Shown here: positions 9,653-51,332 of the stretch, one piece after another
Layout: every line of letters starts with the position of its first letter
Position numbering within the stretch: the stretch's first letter is position 1
Sequence record: MK327941.1
DNA from: Escherichia phage vB_EcoM_G37-3
Length of the DNA: 64,000 bases
Strand: one strand, 5' to 3'
The notes under the pieces: model-generated
What the model saw: the letters and a program-made list of their open reading frames with translations, nothing else
What the model was told of the DNA's origin: nothing
Databases searched by the model: none
Program-made: the position numbers and the translations under genes

Positions 9653-10156
9653 TTAAATTAAAGAAAATTTGTAAATCTCTATCAGATCGCCGTTACACGC
9701 GTAAACTTCCTCGATCTCATCAAGGATCATGGTCGTCCCTGTCTTGTATATGCACTCTCGCTCATCTGCCAACATAGCATACAAAGACAGTCGAGTAGTC
9801 GGATTGTCATACTCTTTAGACACCACTCTGTCAATAGCATGTTCGTAATAATTCATGCAAGGCTTGGTAGGTTTTATTGCAATAATCTTTCCTGTTGCAT
9901 AAACATCGGTTGCAAAGTCCTCTGCGGTTGATTGCAGTGGCGTAAAGCTCATAGGACGCTCTACAACGAAAGAATCACCTACAATTAAGGTATCCAGCTT
10001 ACGGCCTTCTCTTTTGCTCACACCGCGATACAAGGCTTCGTGATGCACTAACCGTTCAGTCTTTTCAATCAATCCATTAAGGATCGACATATCGATATTT
10101 TCTTTAGAGTTCATCACTTCATCAATGATGTTAAGTTCTTCTGGTGTAAATTGCAT
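9653..10156 (-). CDS. putative ADP-ribosyltransferase (ModA/ModB-like)
   Basis: R (LYRG), S-x-T (MSFT) and E-x-E (ADEREC) in the order of the R-S-EXE signature; lies at the T4 modA/modB position. Confidence 0.45.
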   Translation of the reverse strand: MQFTPEELNIIDEVMNSKENIDMSILNGLIEKTERLVHHEALYRGVSKREGRKLDTLIVGDSFVVERPMSFTPLQSTAEDFATDVYATGKIIAIKPTKPCMNYYEHAIDRVVSKEYDNPTTRLSLYAMLADERECIYKTGTTMILDEIEEVYACNGDLIEIYKFSLI

Positions 10157-10274: not shown

Positions 10275-11204
10275 ATGAACTATAAACGTATTTATGATAA
10301 CCTGATTGAACGTGCTAAGACTCGAACTATCGACGGATATACAGAAAAGCATCACATCATACCACGTTGTATGAATGGAAGCGATGATGATAGCAATCTA
10401 GTTAGACTCACCCCAGAGGAACATTACATTGCTCACCTTCTGTTAGTTAAGATTTATCCAGATAACAGTAAATTGGTTTATGCTGCAAATATGATGTGCG
10501 TTTCTTCTGATTCACATAATGGAGAAAGACAGTCAAATAAACGTCATGGTTGGTTGCGTAGAAAAATGGCAGAGGCACATAGTAAAAGAATCCGCGATAG
10601 AATGGAGAACGATCCTGAATATAGAGCTAAGGTTTCGGAATGGGCTAGAAAAATGGGTAAAGCTATGAAAGGAGTTAAACGAGGACCGGAATTTAGCAGA
10701 AAGTTGGCAGAAAGAAACAGAAATACCGTGATGAAAGAAGAAACTAAACGTAAAATCGGGGAAGCCAACAAAGGAAGGAAACGTACAGAAGAATATAAAA
10801 GAAAACATAGTGAGCGGTATAAGGGTGAAGGTAATCCGATGTATGGTAAACGAGGAAAGGACCATCCGGCATATGGTACTAAACCGTGGAACAACCAAAC
10901 ATCATTTGTTGAGCAGAAAGCATGGTGGCGTTTCGCTGGCATGTTCTATGACTGGTATCAGAGAGATATTGACCGTGGAACACATAAACGCCACGGCCAT
11001 AAGAGAATGTTAGACGAGTTAGGTTTTGTTGGTTGGCGAGAAAAAGAGCCAGCCGCAGCAAGACGGTCAATTGAGATGTTCGCTAAAGGCTGGAATCCTT
11101 ATGAAGACCAAGAATGGTTAGATTATGTTAATACCCGCTTTCCAAACGACGATAGTTTTCCGCGTTCTTCAACATATACAAGACAAACAGATCTTTCGCA
11201 GTAA
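10275..11204 (+). CDS. HNH homing endonuclease with NUMOD3-like repeats
   Basis: HNH motif EKHHIIPRCMNGSDDDSNLVRLTPEEHYIAH; repeats GNPMYGKRGKDHPAYG; GGAG RBS; only sizeable plus-strand gene in the region. Confidence 0.85.
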   Translation: MNYKRIYDNLIERAKTRTIDGYTEKHHIIPRCMNGSDDDSNLVRLTPEEHYIAHLLLVKIYPDNSKLVYAANMMCVSSDSHNGERQSNKRHGWLRRKMAEAHSKRIRDRMENDPEYRAKVSEWARKMGKAMKGVKRGPEFSRKLAERNRNTVMKEETKRKIGEANKGRKRTEEYKRKHSERYKGEGNPMYGKRGKDHPAYGTKPWNNQTSFVEQKAWWRFAGMFYDWYQRDIDRGTHKRHGHKRMLDELGFVGWREKEPAAARRSIEMFAKGWNPYEDQEWLDYVNTRFPNDDSFPRSSTYTRQTDLSQ

Positions 11205-47520: not shown

Positions 47521-47551
47521 CGAAAAAGCCACCCTTTCGGATGGCTTTTTG
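47521..47551. terminator. bidirectional intrinsic terminator hairpin
   Basis: AAAAAGCCACCCTTTCGGATGGCTTTTT with A/T runs on both sides. Confidence 0.6.
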
Positions 47552-48536: not shown

Positions 48537-49133
48537 TTATTTGGTAGTACCGTCAATAAAATGTTTACGGCACACAGAAACATATTTATCCTCTGCGCCG
48601 ACTTCTATTTGAGCACCATCGCGAATAACATTACCCTCTTTATCTACACGAAGGACCATTGTTGCTTTCTTGCCACAATGACAAATACCTTTCATTTCGA
48701 CCAGTTTATCAGCAAGTGCCATCAATGCCGCAGATCCTTCAAATAGATTGCCCTGAAAGTCAGTGCGAAGGCCATAGCACAGTACAGGGATATTTGCATC
48801 ATCGACAAGCGCACACAAGCCTAAAACATGCTCTTTAGTCATAAATTGGGCTTCGTCTACAAAAACTGCATCTGGACGCCATCGATCCGGTCTACGTTTA
48901 CCTAACGATTCACGATAAACCAAATCGAAAAGATCATCCGATTTAGTGAAGGTGATCGCTGGAGCACTTAGACCAATTCGGGAAACAACTTCACTTTCTG
49001 AATATCGATTATCAATCGCTGGCTTAAGAATTAATACTCGCATATCACGTTCGGTATAGTTATAAGCACTTTGTAACAGAGAAGTTGATTTGCCAGCGTT
49101 CATAGATGCATAGTAGAAATATAATTGCGCCAT
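48537..49133 (-). CDS. tk: thymidine kinase
   Basis: 198 aa; P-loop NAGKST, zinc ribbon CHCGKKA...VCRKH; colinear with T4 Tk. Confidence 0.92.
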   Translation of the reverse strand: MAQLYFYYASMNAGKSTSLLQSAYNYTERDMRVLILKPAIDNRYSESEVVSRIGLSAPAITFTKSDDLFDLVYRESLGKRRPDRWRPDAVFVDEAQFMTKEHVLGLCALVDDANIPVLCYGLRTDFQGNLFEGSAALMALADKLVEMKGICHCGKKATMVLRVDKEGNVIRDGAQIEVGAEDKYVSVCRKHFIDGTTK

Positions 49134-49426
49134 TAATTAATCTCCAAAAATCCAGCAAGACCTAAACCGATATAAGTCCAGATACCAATAAAAAAGATGT
49201 TAATGCTCATGACAAGGATAAACCCTTTTAGCGTTTTAGGATATCCGACCCAATATTCCCGACCATCTTCTAACCGGATCAACTTATTTCCTTGCGAGTC
49301 CATATCAACCACAACATGTTTATTTCGAGATTGCAATAGATATTGTTTTACAATCTCCACACCCGCCATAATAACAATAACGAAAATAAAAGTCCACACA
49401 ACAAGATTAATGATAGTCTCAAGCAT
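49133..49426 (-). CDS. membrane protein (97 aa, two TM segments)
   Basis: Hydrophobic N- and C-terminal segments; TAATG overlap with tk. Confidence 0.5.
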   Translation of the reverse strand: MLETIINLVVWTFIFVIVIMAGVEIVKQYLLQSRNKHVVVDMDSQGNKLIRLEDGREYWVGYPKTLKGFILVMSINIFFIGIWTYIGLGLAGFLEIN

Positions 49427-49661
49427 TTTCTATCACCTCCACCCAATCAGGTGTTTCCTGAAAGACTCCTTCACCTTCATGATGGTCGCAACCTTTATTG
49501 CTGCAATACATCCACCAATCCCACATTCCCCACGGTAAACGCTGCATATCGTCGTTACAGCAAGTGAATATAATAGGCCAACCACATCTAACACATCGGC
49601 AGTTTTCCTTCATGTGTGCGGTATTAGGCTTCTTCATAGATGACTCCAATATAATCGACAT
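49419..49661 (-). CDS. small Cys-rich protein (80 aa; start uncertain)
   Basis: CRCVRCG...CCNDD...CSNKGCDHHEGEG. Confidence 0.4.
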   Translation of the reverse strand: MSIILESSMKKPNTAHMKENCRCVRCGWPIIFTCCNDDMQRLPWGMWDWWMYCSNKGCDHHEGEGVFQETPDWVEVIENA

Positions 49662-49828
49662 TTACATTTAGGGCAATGCGGTTCTTTAATATAATACCCG
49701 TCTGTCTTTGGAACACTAACAGGAGCGGTTTTTATATTGTATTCAGTGAAACAACGAAAACAAGTTACGTTTTCTACAGACTGACGTTTCACCCAATCAC
49801 CGGAATATAGATCATTTTTATTTGTCAT
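49634..49828 (-). CDS. small zinc-ribbon-like protein (64 aa)
   Basis: CFRCF...CPKCKC; internal ATG at 49828. Confidence 0.4.
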   Translation of the reverse strand: MTNKNDLYSGDWVKRQSVENVTCFRCFTEYNIKTAPVSVPKTDGYYIKEPHCPKCKCRLYWSHL

Positions 49829-50273
49829 ATTCAACCACCACAATGTTAATGTCTGGAGTAGCAATATTAATGATCTCTTCTACACATTCCCACTCAAGGC
49901 CACCGATACCGCAACCGATTTTAGGAATATAGAAAGGCTGTATAGCACCTTCAAAAACATCATTGATAGTCTCAAATCCTTTCAGGATAGCACCATATTC
50001 AGCATTTGGACCCGGTCGGAATTGGGTATAGAGATTCACCCCGCACCAGTTATAACCATTAACTTGATGCGTCCAGACACTAAACCCACCCAGCTTTTCT
50101 ACCTTACCGCGAGAAGTTTGCTTGTCAATCTCTAACGCTTGCGGGAACTCTTTCGCGATCTTTGCAGCAATACCAGCGCCCATAGTATGAAAACAATTAC
50201 AACCATGAATTAAATGACCGTTTCCTTGTTTAAACAGGGCGATGAGATCGCCCTTTACAGTATCAATAATCAT
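49818..50273 (-). CDS. macrodomain protein, TARG1/OARD1-like (putative ADP-ribosyl hydrolase)
   Basis: VKGDLIALFKQGNGHLIHGCNCFHTMGAGIAAKIAKEF matches the OARD1/TARG1 GDLF...HC.S.D..MGAGIA signature; GAGAGGTTTATATT leader. Confidence 0.7.
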   Translation of the reverse strand: MIIDTVKGDLIALFKQGNGHLIHGCNCFHTMGAGIAAKIAKEFPQALEIDKQTSRGKVEKLGGFSVWTHQVNGYNWCGVNLYTQFRPGPNAEYGAILKGFETINDVFEGAIQPFYIPKIGCGIGGLEWECVEEIINIATPDINIVVVEYDK

Positions 50274-50288
50274 AATATAAACCTCTCA

Positions 50289-50648
50289 TTAGTCACGGGA
50301 AGACAACCCAGCCATAAAACGGCTTAACAGTGTGTCGCGATAAGCAAAGCATAATTGCTTATCAGGGGCAGTATCACAAAGGTTGCGTTTTGTTTTAGCA
50401 AAGCTGGCAATACTCAGATCCCACGCTCGATTTTTTCGTTTTTCGTCTCGACCTTGTTTGTATGCTTCATCAAGTTCGAGCGCGATAAAATCACTACACA
50501 TGTTATCATCATCACAGAAAGTTTTAATGATCTTTTTGTTGATCTCAAATCCTTTGTATTCGAACTTTGGATAAGGGCGCTCATTACTAGCAAGCGCACC
50601 AGCAGAGAACATCATAGCAATCATAGCAATTATTGTCAACTTTTTCAT
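50289..50648 (-). CDS. secreted/periplasmic protein (119 aa) with signal peptide and 4 Cys
   Basis: MKKLTIIAMIAMMFSAGALA signal-like N-terminus. Confidence 0.5.
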   Translation of the reverse strand: MKKLTIIAMIAMMFSAGALASNERPYPKFEYKGFEINKKIIKTFCDDDNMCSDFIALELDEAYKQGRDEKRKNRAWDLSIASFAKTKRNLCDTAPDKQLCFAYRDTLLSRFMAGLSSRD

Positions 50649-50655
50649 ATATTCC

Positions 50656-51246
50656 TCAATAGCGTTTAGTCTTAAGAATGCCTTTACTCTTTAGATGGTT
50701 AGCCTTTTTTAGTACGTCATCAGCATAACCTAATCCGGCTTTATAGTTCCATCCAGCATTGTAAGAAGCTAGCGCGAGTCGGATATTACCGTTTCGAACA
50801 TCCAGCCAGTATGCTAACTCATCCATCGCGTAGAATGCAGAAACCTCGCGATTCATGATAAAGTTGATAGTCTGGCGATCACTCATTTTAACACCGCGCT
50901 TTGCATTTTTCGCTTTCACCGTTTTAAGGTAATTTTGAAATAATCCATAAGCATGATGATTTTTCTTTGGTGCTAAGTTTGCACCCGCGCTTGATTCTTG
51001 CCATGCGATACCCGCCAGGATGTGACCTAAACCCTTTCCGTTATAGCGAATATTCGGATGGTACTTTTTCAACTTACCGCTTTTCTCAAATTGCTCGCCG
51101 TATTGATAGGCGAAATGTAAATTATCTAGTTGGTGTGGTGTAAAGTTGTCTATCGGCGCTTTTTTGATCGGTGCGCTAGTCGATGCGTGTGTAGCACCAA
51201 CGGCTAGTGACAGACTCAATACTATCGCTTTTAGAACTTTTAACAT
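50656..51246 (-). CDS. secreted lytic transglycosylase (SLT domain)
   Basis: Signal-like N-terminus MLKVLKAIVLSLSLAVGATHA; SLT motifs GIAWQESS and AYGLFQ. Confidence 0.65.
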   Translation of the reverse strand: MLKVLKAIVLSLSLAVGATHASTSAPIKKAPIDNFTPHQLDNLHFAYQYGEQFEKSGKLKKYHPNIRYNGKGLGHILAGIAWQESSAGANLAPKKNHHAYGLFQNYLKTVKAKNAKRGVKMSDRQTINFIMNREVSAFYAMDELAYWLDVRNGNIRLALASYNAGWNYKAGLGYADDVLKKANHLKSKGILKTKRY

Positions 51247-51332
51247 TAATTTCTCCTGTTTGGCTTAACTTTCTGATTCCATAATATAGCCCTATCACCA
51301 GAAAGTCAAGCATTATTTTTAACCAATTTCCA

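Follow-up and report, generated by a model that had tools for sequence, protein, structure and literature searches.

A stand-alone Krischvirus macrodomain, orthologous and syntenic to T4 Tk.4, probably counters DarT2

Introduction

The open reading frame (ORF) at 49818..50273 of the Escherichia phage vB_EcoM_G37-3 sequence (MK327941.1; the whole 64,000-nucleotide stretch analysed is referred to as the window) raises the question of which ADP-ribose linkage its macrodomain product would remove during infection and which residues would take part. The original prediction, made from the sequence alone, described the product as a TARG1/OARD1-type macrodomain that could reverse host DarT-type DNA ADP-ribosylation or tune the ADP-ribosylation performed by the phage itself. 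The window belongs to a Krischvirus, an RB49/JSE-like T4-type coliphage. In RefSeq, the gene is labeled "phosphatase; A1pp motif", and the records of Krischvirus and many other phages label it "phosphatase" or "hypothetical protein". The A1pp/macro annotation of tk.4 orthologs is reported to date from 2006, when a study of six genomes, RB49 among them, found a full domain match in four of the six orthologs (PMC1524935).

DarTG2 is described as a bacterial defence that ADP-ribosylates DNA, and a 2025 preprint reports tk.4 as the only T4 gene needed for DarTG2 resistance and renames it adfM (bioRxiv 10.1101/2025.11.20.689424). The evidence in that preprint is genetic: tk.4 is the single HIDEN-SEQ match on DarTG2 hosts, and the clean knock-out is sensitised. 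Neither the macrodomain identity nor the anti-DarT role reported for the T4 protein is new, and the gene is an ordinary one: as Tk.4 of an RB49-like coliphage it has been annotated for a long time, and its T4 counterpart was recently tied to DarTG2 protection.

Results

The ORF at 49818..50273 lies on the minus strand, which the original prediction did not give, and has an ATG start codon and a product of 151 aa, as read from the ORF list and the translation. The N-terminus reads MIIDTVKGDLIALFKQGNGHLIHGCNCFHTMGAGIA, both motifs quoted in the prediction are present in the product, and the key residues are H23-G-C-N26-C27, M31-G-A-G-I-A36, N80-L-Y-T-Q84 and P117-K-I-G-C-G-I-G-G125. A Shine-Dalgarno-like GAGAGG, read from the sequence at 50282..50287 (minus strand), is located 8 nt 5' of the ATG and directly after the stop codon of vs (50289-50291), and the ATG lies 15 nt downstream of this stop codon. 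At the other end, the stop of the ORF overlaps the ATG (49828) of the next ORF by 11 nt.

Profile searches and structure prediction, two of the checks suggested with the original prediction, agree on a macrodomain. The Pfam family PF01661 (Macro) matches with 28.7 bits, above its gathering score of 22, over positions 1-118 of the 118 in the profile, and PHROG 335 matches with an E value of 1.1e-61. The PADLOC DarG model (E 3.9e-14) aligns with the ORF at model positions 3-141 of 329, and the NCBIfam model NF048014 (antitoxin_DarG) reaches 48 bits where its cut-off is 250, with only positions 2-141 of 338 covered. The sequence matches in the PDB are DarG, BT1257, SCO6735, TARG1 and Poa1p; the best match of the single sequence is DarG 5m3i (E 5e-8), and an alignment profile of the ORF matches 16 PDB macrodomains with E values down to 8e-16. 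The AlphaFold2 model of the protein (pLDDT 94.7, pTM 0.89) confirms, as a prediction, the three-layer alpha/beta/alpha macro fold. Foldseek searches with this model return TARG1, DarG, Poa1p and viral macrodomains at a probability of 1.0, with TM values of 0.75-0.80 to TARG1 and DarG. The first three ranks are occupied by TARG1 chains, which places the protein closest to the ALC1-like/TARG1-like structural class, and yeast Poa1p is also among the top structural matches (E 8e-9). Homologs are present in 2731 phage records covering many host genera, and chance does not account for the macrodomain assignment. In sequence alignments of 56 and 80 homologs, N26, M31-GAGIA-36 and I119-GCGIGG-125 show no or almost no variation, and these residues would provide the ADP-ribose-binding loops, namely the conserved Asn and a pair of Gly-rich loops for phosphate binding.

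By both sequence and synteny, the ORF is orthologous to T4 tk.4 (AdfM, "anti-DarT factor macrodomain"). T4 Tk.4 aligns with it over the full length at 44% identity (153 columns, E 9e-45) and, as a tblastn query, finds 49818..50273 as its single match in the window, where the genes follow the same order as in T4, regB-vs.1-vs-tk.4-(small ORFs)-tk-rI. A T4-like tk-regB block is found in approximately 20 of 80 IMG/VR loci. T4 AdfA (61.2) and AdfN (30.3) have no tblastn match in the window, although AdfN would be expected outside it anyway, so that this negative result carries no information.

Directly upstream of the tk.4 ortholog is vs (50289..50648, minus strand), a valyl-tRNA synthetase modifier homolog (PHROG 1256, E 1.8e-33; JSE and T4 annotation), which is preceded by the vs.1 homolog (50656..51246, minus strand), with an SLT transglycosylase domain (Pfam SLT, 25.7 bits; PHROG 600) and a signal-peptide-like N-terminus in its translation. 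The next ORF downstream (49634..49828, minus strand) encodes a 64-aa Cys-rich zinc-binding protein (Pfam PF23903, E 1e-23) that is 78% identical to AlexBoehm L004:4713-4907; in Krischvirus and Vequintavirus, this ORF and the macrodomain gene are inherited together. The neighbourhood of small Cys-rich and secreted proteins that had been predicted is indeed present, in the form of two Phage_zn_bind ORFs, the SLT-domain protein Vs.1 and the signal-peptide-like N-termini of Vs and Vs.1. The antiholin RI and a 97-aa ORF with hydrophobic segments, as read from its translation, are also encoded near tk.4, and no tRNA genes or Rfam matches are found in the 64 kb.

A consensus scan identifies a candidate sigma-70-like promoter, TTGACT-17-TATTAT, upstream of vs.1 (51281..51309, minus strand), at a position matching an annotated promoter of GEC-3S (NC_025425); this element is likely the early promoter for vs.1-vs-tk.4-...-tk-rI. 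Because matches to the sigma-70 consensus show no enrichment relative to shuffles (26, with 19.3 +/- 4.3 expected), the expression timing of tk.4 can only be inferred. A candidate intrinsic-terminator hairpin, with a stem of 12 bp and then a T run, is found by scanning downstream of rI.-1 (47523..47550, minus strand), at the place equivalent to an annotated GEC-3S terminator, and likely marks the end of the transcription unit.

When all ORFs in the 80 IMG/VR loci were clustered, the idea of a linked toxin or ADP-ribosyltransferase was rejected, as nothing recurs apart from genes belonging to the T4-like tk-regB block; among the approximately 60 loci outside this block, neither an adjacent ADP-ribosyltransferase nor any other recurrent partner is found. 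The zinc-binding ORF was likewise rejected as a universal partner, as T4 has unrelated small ORFs in this place and the ORF is nearby in only 5 of the 80 loci. In the window, the macrodomain gene is flanked by vs and the zinc-binding ORF, with no adjacent darT gene, and its product, at 151 aa versus about 330-340 aa for DarG, does not include the C-terminal DarT-binding domain of DarG. Because it has neither a DarT partner nor this C-terminal domain, the Tk.4 ortholog is a putative eraser of the orphan-antitoxin type.

The active site departs from that of TARG1. HMM alignments, both profile and pairwise, and a MAFFT alignment all put Gln84 where TARG1 has its catalytic Lys84, and the catalytic Asp125 is replaced by an aligned Gly124. 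The TARG1/OARD1-type description is therefore retained for the fold and the ADP-ribose-binding loops and has to be abandoned for the catalytic dyad (K84 to Gln84, D125 to Gly124); a lack of catalytic residues, which the original prediction had itself named as evidence against it, is what was found with respect to TARG1 chemistry. The catalytic Lys80 of DarG, which is the Lys of the T-K-K motif in 5m3i, is not conserved either and aligns with the same Gln84. The residue found at this position in SCO6735 is Gln85, and in both SCO6735 and BT1257 the aligned residue is the Gln of a G-Q-H motif. Gln84 is present in 55 of the 56 and 79 of the 80 homologs and also in T4 Tk.4. The extended mobile loop of SCO6735, with its Lys89/Lys93, is absent from the phage protein, as gaps of 5 residues relative to SCO6735 and 6 relative to BT1257 follow Gln84.

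In SCO6735, Gln85 is reported to be essential to the hydrolysis of thymidine-ADP-ribose DNA, and SCO6735 is reported to rescue DarT toxicity (PMC9411070). A hydrolase activity of the phage protein without the DarG/TARG1 catalytic Lys would rest on the analogy with SCO6735. That the T4-type AdfM clade is without the DarG/TARG1 lysine and has the SCO6735-type glutamine was not found stated in the available parts of the cited papers, and this Gln-for-Lys exchange makes Q84, N26 and H23 concrete mutagenesis targets for the mechanism of phage erasers.

Discussion

An anti-DarT role may be assigned to the macrodomain of the window because the T4 ortholog tk.4 is needed against DarTG2. The predicted reversal of DarT-type DNA ADP-ribosylation gains support through this ortholog (44% identity, DarTG2 knock-out phenotype) and is not new. 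Furthermore, PhiKZ gp104, which is also named AdfM, is reported to strip DarT2-made ADP-ribose off DNA in vitro, with lower activity in a mutant of the conserved Asn (PMC13309987); this Asn (N23) aligns with Asn26, which is invariant in 80 of 80 loci. We infer that the protein has the same role as T4 AdfM, through enzymatic removal of thymidine-linked ADP-ribose. By analogy, the Krischvirus Tk.4 ortholog is probably an orphan-antitoxin-type macrodomain that erases the thymidine-linked ADP-ribose made by DarT2 by Gln-dependent catalysis.

The AdfM ortholog would be made early in infection from the vs.1-vs-tk.4-...-tk-rI unit and would bind the ADP-ribose that host DarT2 toxins place on thymidines of single-stranded phage DNA. 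Hydrolysis of the N-glycosidic link would then restore replicable DNA and permit growth on DarTG2-carrying E. coli. The expected route of catalysis is the Gln-dependent one of SCO6735, in which Gln84 would act with Asn26 and the H23-G-C-N-C loop, rather than the chemistry of TARG1, based on Lys/Asp, or that of DarG, based on Lys. In practical terms, the value of the analysis is a correct annotation, AdfM/Tk.4-type anti-DarT2 macrodomain, to replace "phosphatase" and "hypothetical protein", and this annotation bears on forecasting which therapeutic coliphages grow on DarTG2-carrying strains.

The identity to T4 Tk.4, at only 44%, was counted as a point against the anti-DarT explanation. ICP1 AdfB was considered as a related macrodomain and rejected, as AdfB is a DarT binder and not a macrodomain; a Thoeris-related role was also rejected, as the macrodomains of the Migulavirinae preprint concern only the host ThsA effector.

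A bolder proposal, possible but rather doubtful, is that the Tk.4/AdfM clade constitutes a distinct catalytic subclass, in which a scaffold of TARG1/DarG length is combined with an SCO6735-like Gln and the invariant H-G-C-N-C ... N-x-Y-T-Q residues. Such a subclass may use water-mediated chemistry and accept broader substrates than DarG. If so, the substrates could include protein- or RNA-linked ADP-ribose besides thymidine-ADP-ribose DNA, the clade would be a general eraser against ADP-ribosyltransferase-based immunity, and cooperation with the co-inherited 64-aa zinc-binding protein would be possible in Krischvirus and Vequintavirus.

It is unlikely that other ADP-ribose substrates are the main or an additional target, in response to ADP-ribosyltransferase defences other than DarT2; the candidates would be Asp/Glu-linked protein ADP-ribose and phosphate- or base-linked ADP-ribose on RNA or DNA. 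SCO6735, which has the Gln-type site as well, is reported to accept protein in addition to DNA as a substrate (PMC9411070), enzymes of the TARG1 class are reported to cleave phosphate-linked nucleic-acid ADP-ribose and O-acetyl-ADP-ribose as well (PMC8883491), and the spread of the family over 2731 phage records and many host genera may exceed the reach of DarTG2. However, T4 tk.4 is reported as a match specifically in the DarTG2 screen (bioRxiv 10.1101/2025.11.20.689424).

The RefSeq label "phosphatase; A1pp motif" would instead suggest a small-molecule enzyme, which would remove NAD-derived metabolites in the course of infection as a Poa1p-like ADP-ribose-1''-phosphate phosphatase or as a deacetylase of O-acetyl-ADP-ribose. 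Poa1p ranks among the best structural matches (E 8e-9), shares the L-I-H-x-C-N-C...G-G-I-A loop, has its own H23 aligned with H23 of the phage protein and is represented in the PDB by H23A and S30A mutants, but it carries Ser, not Gln, where Gln84 sits; the likeness seen is one of fold and loop 1 only. To our knowledge, there is no evidence of Tpt1-type tRNA splicing in T4-type infection. Such splicing is given as the known source of the substrate (PMC8883491), the "phosphatase" label is reported to stem from the old domain name A1pp and not from an assay (PMC1524935), and the phenotype reported for the T4 knock-out concerns DarTG2 specifically (bioRxiv 10.1101/2025.11.20.689424), which together make a small-molecule function very improbable.

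The window does contain the predicted Mod-like arginine ADP-ribosyltransferase, outside the tk.4 unit at 9653..10156 (minus strand), with LYRG...SFT...DERE motifs. This ORF matches PHROG 832, "RNA polymerase ADP-ribosylase" (E 1e-20), and T4 ModB (33% identity, E 8e-11) and ModA (E 2e-6, aligned through the DExE motif) in BLASTP searches, and it adjoins srd as in T4; in relatives it is annotated as ModB/ADP-ribosyltransferase, and an NCBIfam search with it gave no match, so that the assignment draws on PHROG, BLASTP and synteny. We know of no TARG1/DarG-class macrodomain that reverses the arginine-linked products of a Mod-like ADP-ribosyltransferase. The presence of this gene, together with a putative alt gene reported for RB49 (PMC1524935), would suit a macrodomain that reverses or limits the ADP-ribosylation or RNAylation of host proteins by the Alt/Mod enzymes of the phage. 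However, T4 ModB RNAylation is reported to hit specific arginine residues and to be reversed by ARH1, and arginine-linked ADP-ribose is removed by ARH1-type hydrolases, whereas TARG1/MacroD act on acidic residues (PMC8883491). In addition, the macrodomain and Mod-like genes are 40 kb apart, and the roughly 60 of 80 IMG/VR loci outside the T4-like block contain no recurrent partner; tuning of the phage's own ADP-ribosylation, the second role originally proposed, is therefore not supported and has very little probability.

Neutralisation of DarT2 by binding, or sequestration of ADP-ribosylated DNA or ADP-ribose without hydrolysis, is scarcely credible. In its favour, the catalytically dead mutants SCO6735 Q85A, DarG K80A and TARG1 K84A are reported to retain inhibition of DarT in vitro through interaction (PMC9411070), phage ICP1 AdfB is reported to act through direct binding (PMC11481870), and the canonical catalytic Lys is missing from the phage protein. 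Against it, N26, the G-rich loops and Q84 are almost invariant in very divergent phages, which fits an enzyme and not a binder of fast-evolving toxins, and the DarT-binding domain of DarG is missing as well.

As a probable eraser of DarT2-made ADP-ribose, the Krischvirus protein can be compared with several known macrodomains. It is 151 aa long versus 155 aa for T4 Tk.4, both genes have vs on one side and the small ORFs ahead of tk on the other, and both proteins contain the motifs H-G-C-N-C-F-H-T-M-G, N-L-Y-T-Q-F-x-P-G-P-N and P-x-I-G-x-G-I-G. However, 56% of the residues differ, and the small ORFs downstream are unrelated, belonging to Phage_zn_bind families here and to DUF7202/DUF7438 in T4.

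Human TARG1/OARD1 (PDB 4J5R/4J5S) is the top Foldseek match (28-29% identity, TM 0.75-0.80) and has the VKGDL...H...MGAGIA...PRIGCG...W motifs in common with the phage protein; TARG1 is also reported to remove thymidine-linked ADP-ribose from DNA (PMC9411070). With DarG of DarTG2 (PDB 5M31/5M3E/5M3I; NF048014), the macrodomain class and presumably the biological substrate are shared, and the ORF covers the N-terminal ~140 positions of the DarG models. The Gln at the position of the catalytic Lys and the H-x-C-N of loop 1 are features of SCO6735 (Streptomyces coelicolor, PDB 5E3B) and BT1257 (Bacteroides, PDB 2FG1). However, the residue before the Gln is Thr83 in the phage protein, as in TARG1 and DarG, and Gly in SCO6735 and BT1257, and SCO6735 is encoded by a bacterial chromosomal gene rather than by a phage.

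PhiKZ gp104 is likewise a stand-alone phage macrodomain, counters DarTG2 and shares the conserved Asn and the G-rich loops. In contrast to the protein of the window, to which it is only 26% identical, gp104 keeps the DarG-like T-K motif and is reported to be imported into the phage nucleus (Cell Rep 2026, PMC13309987). The gp104 and Tk.4-type macrodomains are likely independent acquisitions.

The tk.4 gene and its relatives

The 151-codon ORF tk.4 (49818..50273, (-)) starts with ATG, and its product begins with MIIDTVKGDLIALFKQGNGHLIHGCNCFHTMGAGIA; both motifs quoted in the original prediction are found in this translation. On the coding strand, the TAA stop codon of vs is followed by TGAGAGGTTTATATT and then by the ATG of tk.4, which has a Shine-Dalgarno sequence, GAGAGG, located 8 nt to its 5' side. 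The 3' end of tk.4, stop codon included, overlaps the ORF that follows (ATG at 49828) by 11 nt, and tk.4 is therefore packed in an operon-like array.

The 2.3-kb region around tk.4 is 99.9% identical to that of Escherichia phage vB_EcoM_G5211 and 98-99% identical to those of 57 RB49/JSE/GEC-3S-type phages (Krischvirus, Straboviridae), and the Krischvirus tk.4 proteins share at least 95% identity with the one encoded here. The nearest relatives beyond Krischvirus, such as that of the Vequintavirus phage AlexBoehm, are approximately 68-69% identical, and the homologs of other Straboviridae are below 52%. T4 Tk.4, which has tk.4 as its sole match in the window, aligns over the full length with 44% identity (E 9e-45), and the gene order regB, vs.1, vs, tk.4, three small ORFs, tk, rI and rI.-1 is the same in T4. 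Among 80 IMG/VR viral loci encoding a tk.4 homolog, approximately 20 have a tk-regB-type syntenic block around it. Public records already carry annotations of both gene and domain, and a function has been published for the family. RefSeq labels the JSE protein "tk.4, phosphatase; contains A1pp phosphatase motif", and a 2006 comparison of T4 and five T4-like genomes, RB49 among them, reported A1pp-domain matches in tk.4 orthologs, full in four of six (PMC1524935). Neither tRNA genes nor Rfam families at the gathering threshold are found in the 64-kb window; the former agrees with the published description of RB49 (PMC1524935).

Neighboring genes and expression signals

The original prediction placed the gene among small Cys-rich and secreted proteins, and the domain matches and N-termini agree: two Pfam "Phage_zn_bind" ORFs, Vs.1 with an SLT domain and the antiholin RI lie near tk.4. 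It is no more, however, than the tk-regB early region conserved in T4-type phages. The N-termini of vs (50289..50648, (-); MKKLTIIAMIAMMFSAGALA) and of vs.1 (50656..51246, (-); MLKVLKAIVLSLSLAVGATHA), which encodes the SLT transglycosylase domain, read as signal peptides. Export would be odd for a protein named "valyl-tRNA synthetase modifier", as Vs is; in T4, HIDEN-SEQ in minimal glucose medium is reported to show stronger depletion for vs than for any other gene (10.1101/2025.11.20.689424).

The ORF overlapping the tk.4 stop codon (49634..49828, (-)) encodes a Cys-rich protein of 64 aa (PF23903, Phage_zn_bind_2) that is 78% identical to the product of AlexBoehm L004:4713-4907, located two genes 3' of the AlexBoehm macrodomain gene. 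The genes upstream of the two macrodomain loci are unrelated, which suggests that the macrodomain and zinc-finger genes may form a small module exchanged laterally between unrelated coliphage lineages; in T4, the small ORFs at this place differ (DUF7202/DUF7438). A second Cys-rich ORF (49419..49661, (-); PF23895, Phage_zn_bind, E 6e-34), which adjoins tk in 7 of the 80 viral loci, and a 97-aa ORF with two hydrophobic segments (49133..49426, (-); PHROG 16027) are both located between tk.4 and tk.

A sigma-70-like site (TTGACT-17-TATTAT, 51309..51281, (-)) lies upstream of vs.1 at a position where GEC-3S has an annotated promoter, and a sequence scan places a strong terminator-like hairpin at 47550..47523 (-). 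Expression of tk.4 from this site to the hairpin is suggestive only, because the sigma-70 consensus scan as a whole shows no enrichment over shuffles. Another candidate site (TTGACA-17-TATGAT with a TG extension, 50611..50639, (-)), matching the consensus at 11 of 12 positions, falls within the first codons of vs and could give a transcript that begins 5' of tk.4 and lacks a complete vs.

Macrodomain fold

Profile, PDB sequence and structure searches all bear out the proposed macrodomain. Pfam Macro scores 28.7 bits (gathering score 22) with the whole profile covered, PHROG 335 matches at E 1.1e-61 and the PADLOC DarG model at E 3.9e-14. A phmmer search of the PDB retrieves M. tuberculosis DarG (5m3i, 5e-8), BT1257, SCO6735, TARG1 and Poa1p, and with a 56-sequence family profile the macrodomain matches strengthen to E 1e-16 to 1e-11. 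The AlphaFold2 model computed from this 56-sequence alignment (pLDDT 94.7, pTM 0.89) retrieves TARG1 as the top Foldseek match (E 3e-9, TM 0.75-0.80), followed by Poa1p, the T. aquaticus and M. tuberculosis DarG proteins, BT1257 and SCO6735.

Among the structures of the viral library BFVD, Acinetobacter phage 133 Tk.4 (245 aa) matches best, and its macrodomain is fused to extra sequence. Such fusions are also seen in 260-aa proteins of Erwinia phage vB_Eam-MM7 (Gp101) and Escherichia phage SUSP2, and in a Marseillevirus "SNF2 subfamily protein" (38% identity), which recalls the macro-SNF2 architecture of ALC1.

Active site

The "TARG1-type" label holds for the fold and class and fails for the catalytic residues. 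In HMM alignments, N80-L-Y-T83-Q84 of the tk.4 family corresponds to Y-L-I-T-K84 of TARG1, N-F-P-T-K80 of DarG and N-M-I-G-Q of SCO6735 and BT1257, and P117-K-I-G-C-G-I-G124-G corresponds to P-R-I-G-C-G-L-D125-R of TARG1. The protein therefore lacks both the Lys/Asp dyad of TARG1 and the Lys of DarG, and carries Gln84 and Gly124 instead. Gln84 is kept in 55 of 56 database homologs and in 79 of the 80 IMG/VR loci, and T4 Tk.4 likewise carries it. The equivalent residue of SCO6735, Gln85, is reported to be essential (Q85A and Q85E are inactive); this enzyme strips DNA of thymidine-linked ADP-ribose, relieves cells of DarT toxicity and has been proposed to act through an activated water (PMC9411070). 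As judged from the alignments, the catalytic residues of tk.4 are of the SCO6735 Gln type. That the Gln-type Tk.4 clade works by a mechanism of its own, or accepts a wider range of substrates, is a rather unlikely reading.

The H-x-C-N loop of SCO6735 and BT1257 is common to the phage family, as is the H-x-C-N-C of yeast Poa1p, whose H23 aligns to H23 of tk.4 (the Poa1p sequence used is 100% identical to the 6lfq chain). The Lys-bearing mobile loop of SCO6735 and BT1257, which is 5-6 residues longer, is absent from the tk.4 family. The invariant Asn26 aligns to the Asn of PhiKZ AdfM whose mutation is reported to lower the activity of that protein (PMC13309987).

The Mod-like ADP-ribosyltransferase

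The ORF at 9653..10156 (-), proposed to encode a Mod-like ADP-ribosyltransferase, matches PHROG 832 (E 1e-20), is 33% identical to T4 ModB, aligns to ModA through the DExE motif and adjoins srd, and its counterparts in relatives are annotated as ModB; the assignment is thus borne out by match, alignment and position. The further suggestion that the macrodomain reverses the products of this enzyme is unlikely on the basis of linkage chemistry, because T4 ModB RNAylates specific arginine residues, a modification that ARH1 reverses. Arginine-linked ADP-ribose is a substrate of ARH1, whereas TARG1 and MacroD act on ADP-ribose linked to acidic residues (PMC8883491).

A 309-aa HNH/NUMOD3 homing-endonuclease-like ORF (10275..11204, (+)), encoded on the other strand, separates this ORF from the gene-56 (dCTPase) homolog and overlaps the 3' end of that homolog. 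Just two of the 58 Krischvirus records (JSE) contain the insert, which is therefore sporadic and mobile; in T4, gene 56 adjoins a different, unrelated endonuclease, SegF.

Probable anti-DarT function

The predicted action against DarT is supported by way of the T4 ortholog. In a November 2025 preprint, a T4 transposon library was screened on DarTG2-expressing E. coli, and tk.4 is reported as the single significant gene; its clean deletion sensitized T4 to DarTG2, the gene was renamed adfM (anti-DarT factor macrodomain), and enzymatic removal of ADP-ribose from DNA was proposed (10.1101/2025.11.20.689424). A literature search retrieved no biochemical work on Tk.4-family proteins. Identity with the DarG antitoxin itself is rejected, as tk.4 spans just the N-terminal macro part of DarG models (48 bits against the NCBIfam model, cut-off 250) and no darT is present among the ORFs neighboring it.

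Homologs of the T4 anti-DarT factors AdfA (61.2) and AdfN (30.3) are absent from this window. When all ORFs of the 80 viral loci are clustered, no gene beyond those of the T4-like block recurs as a partner, in keeping with the "orphan antitoxin" role described for the T4 NADAR protein AdfN (PMC11825919). The name AdfM was given independently in 2026 to PhiKZ gp104, which is reported to strip DarT2-made ADP-ribose off DNA in vitro (PMC13309987); this phage macrodomain is more DarG-like and shares only 26% identity with tk.4.
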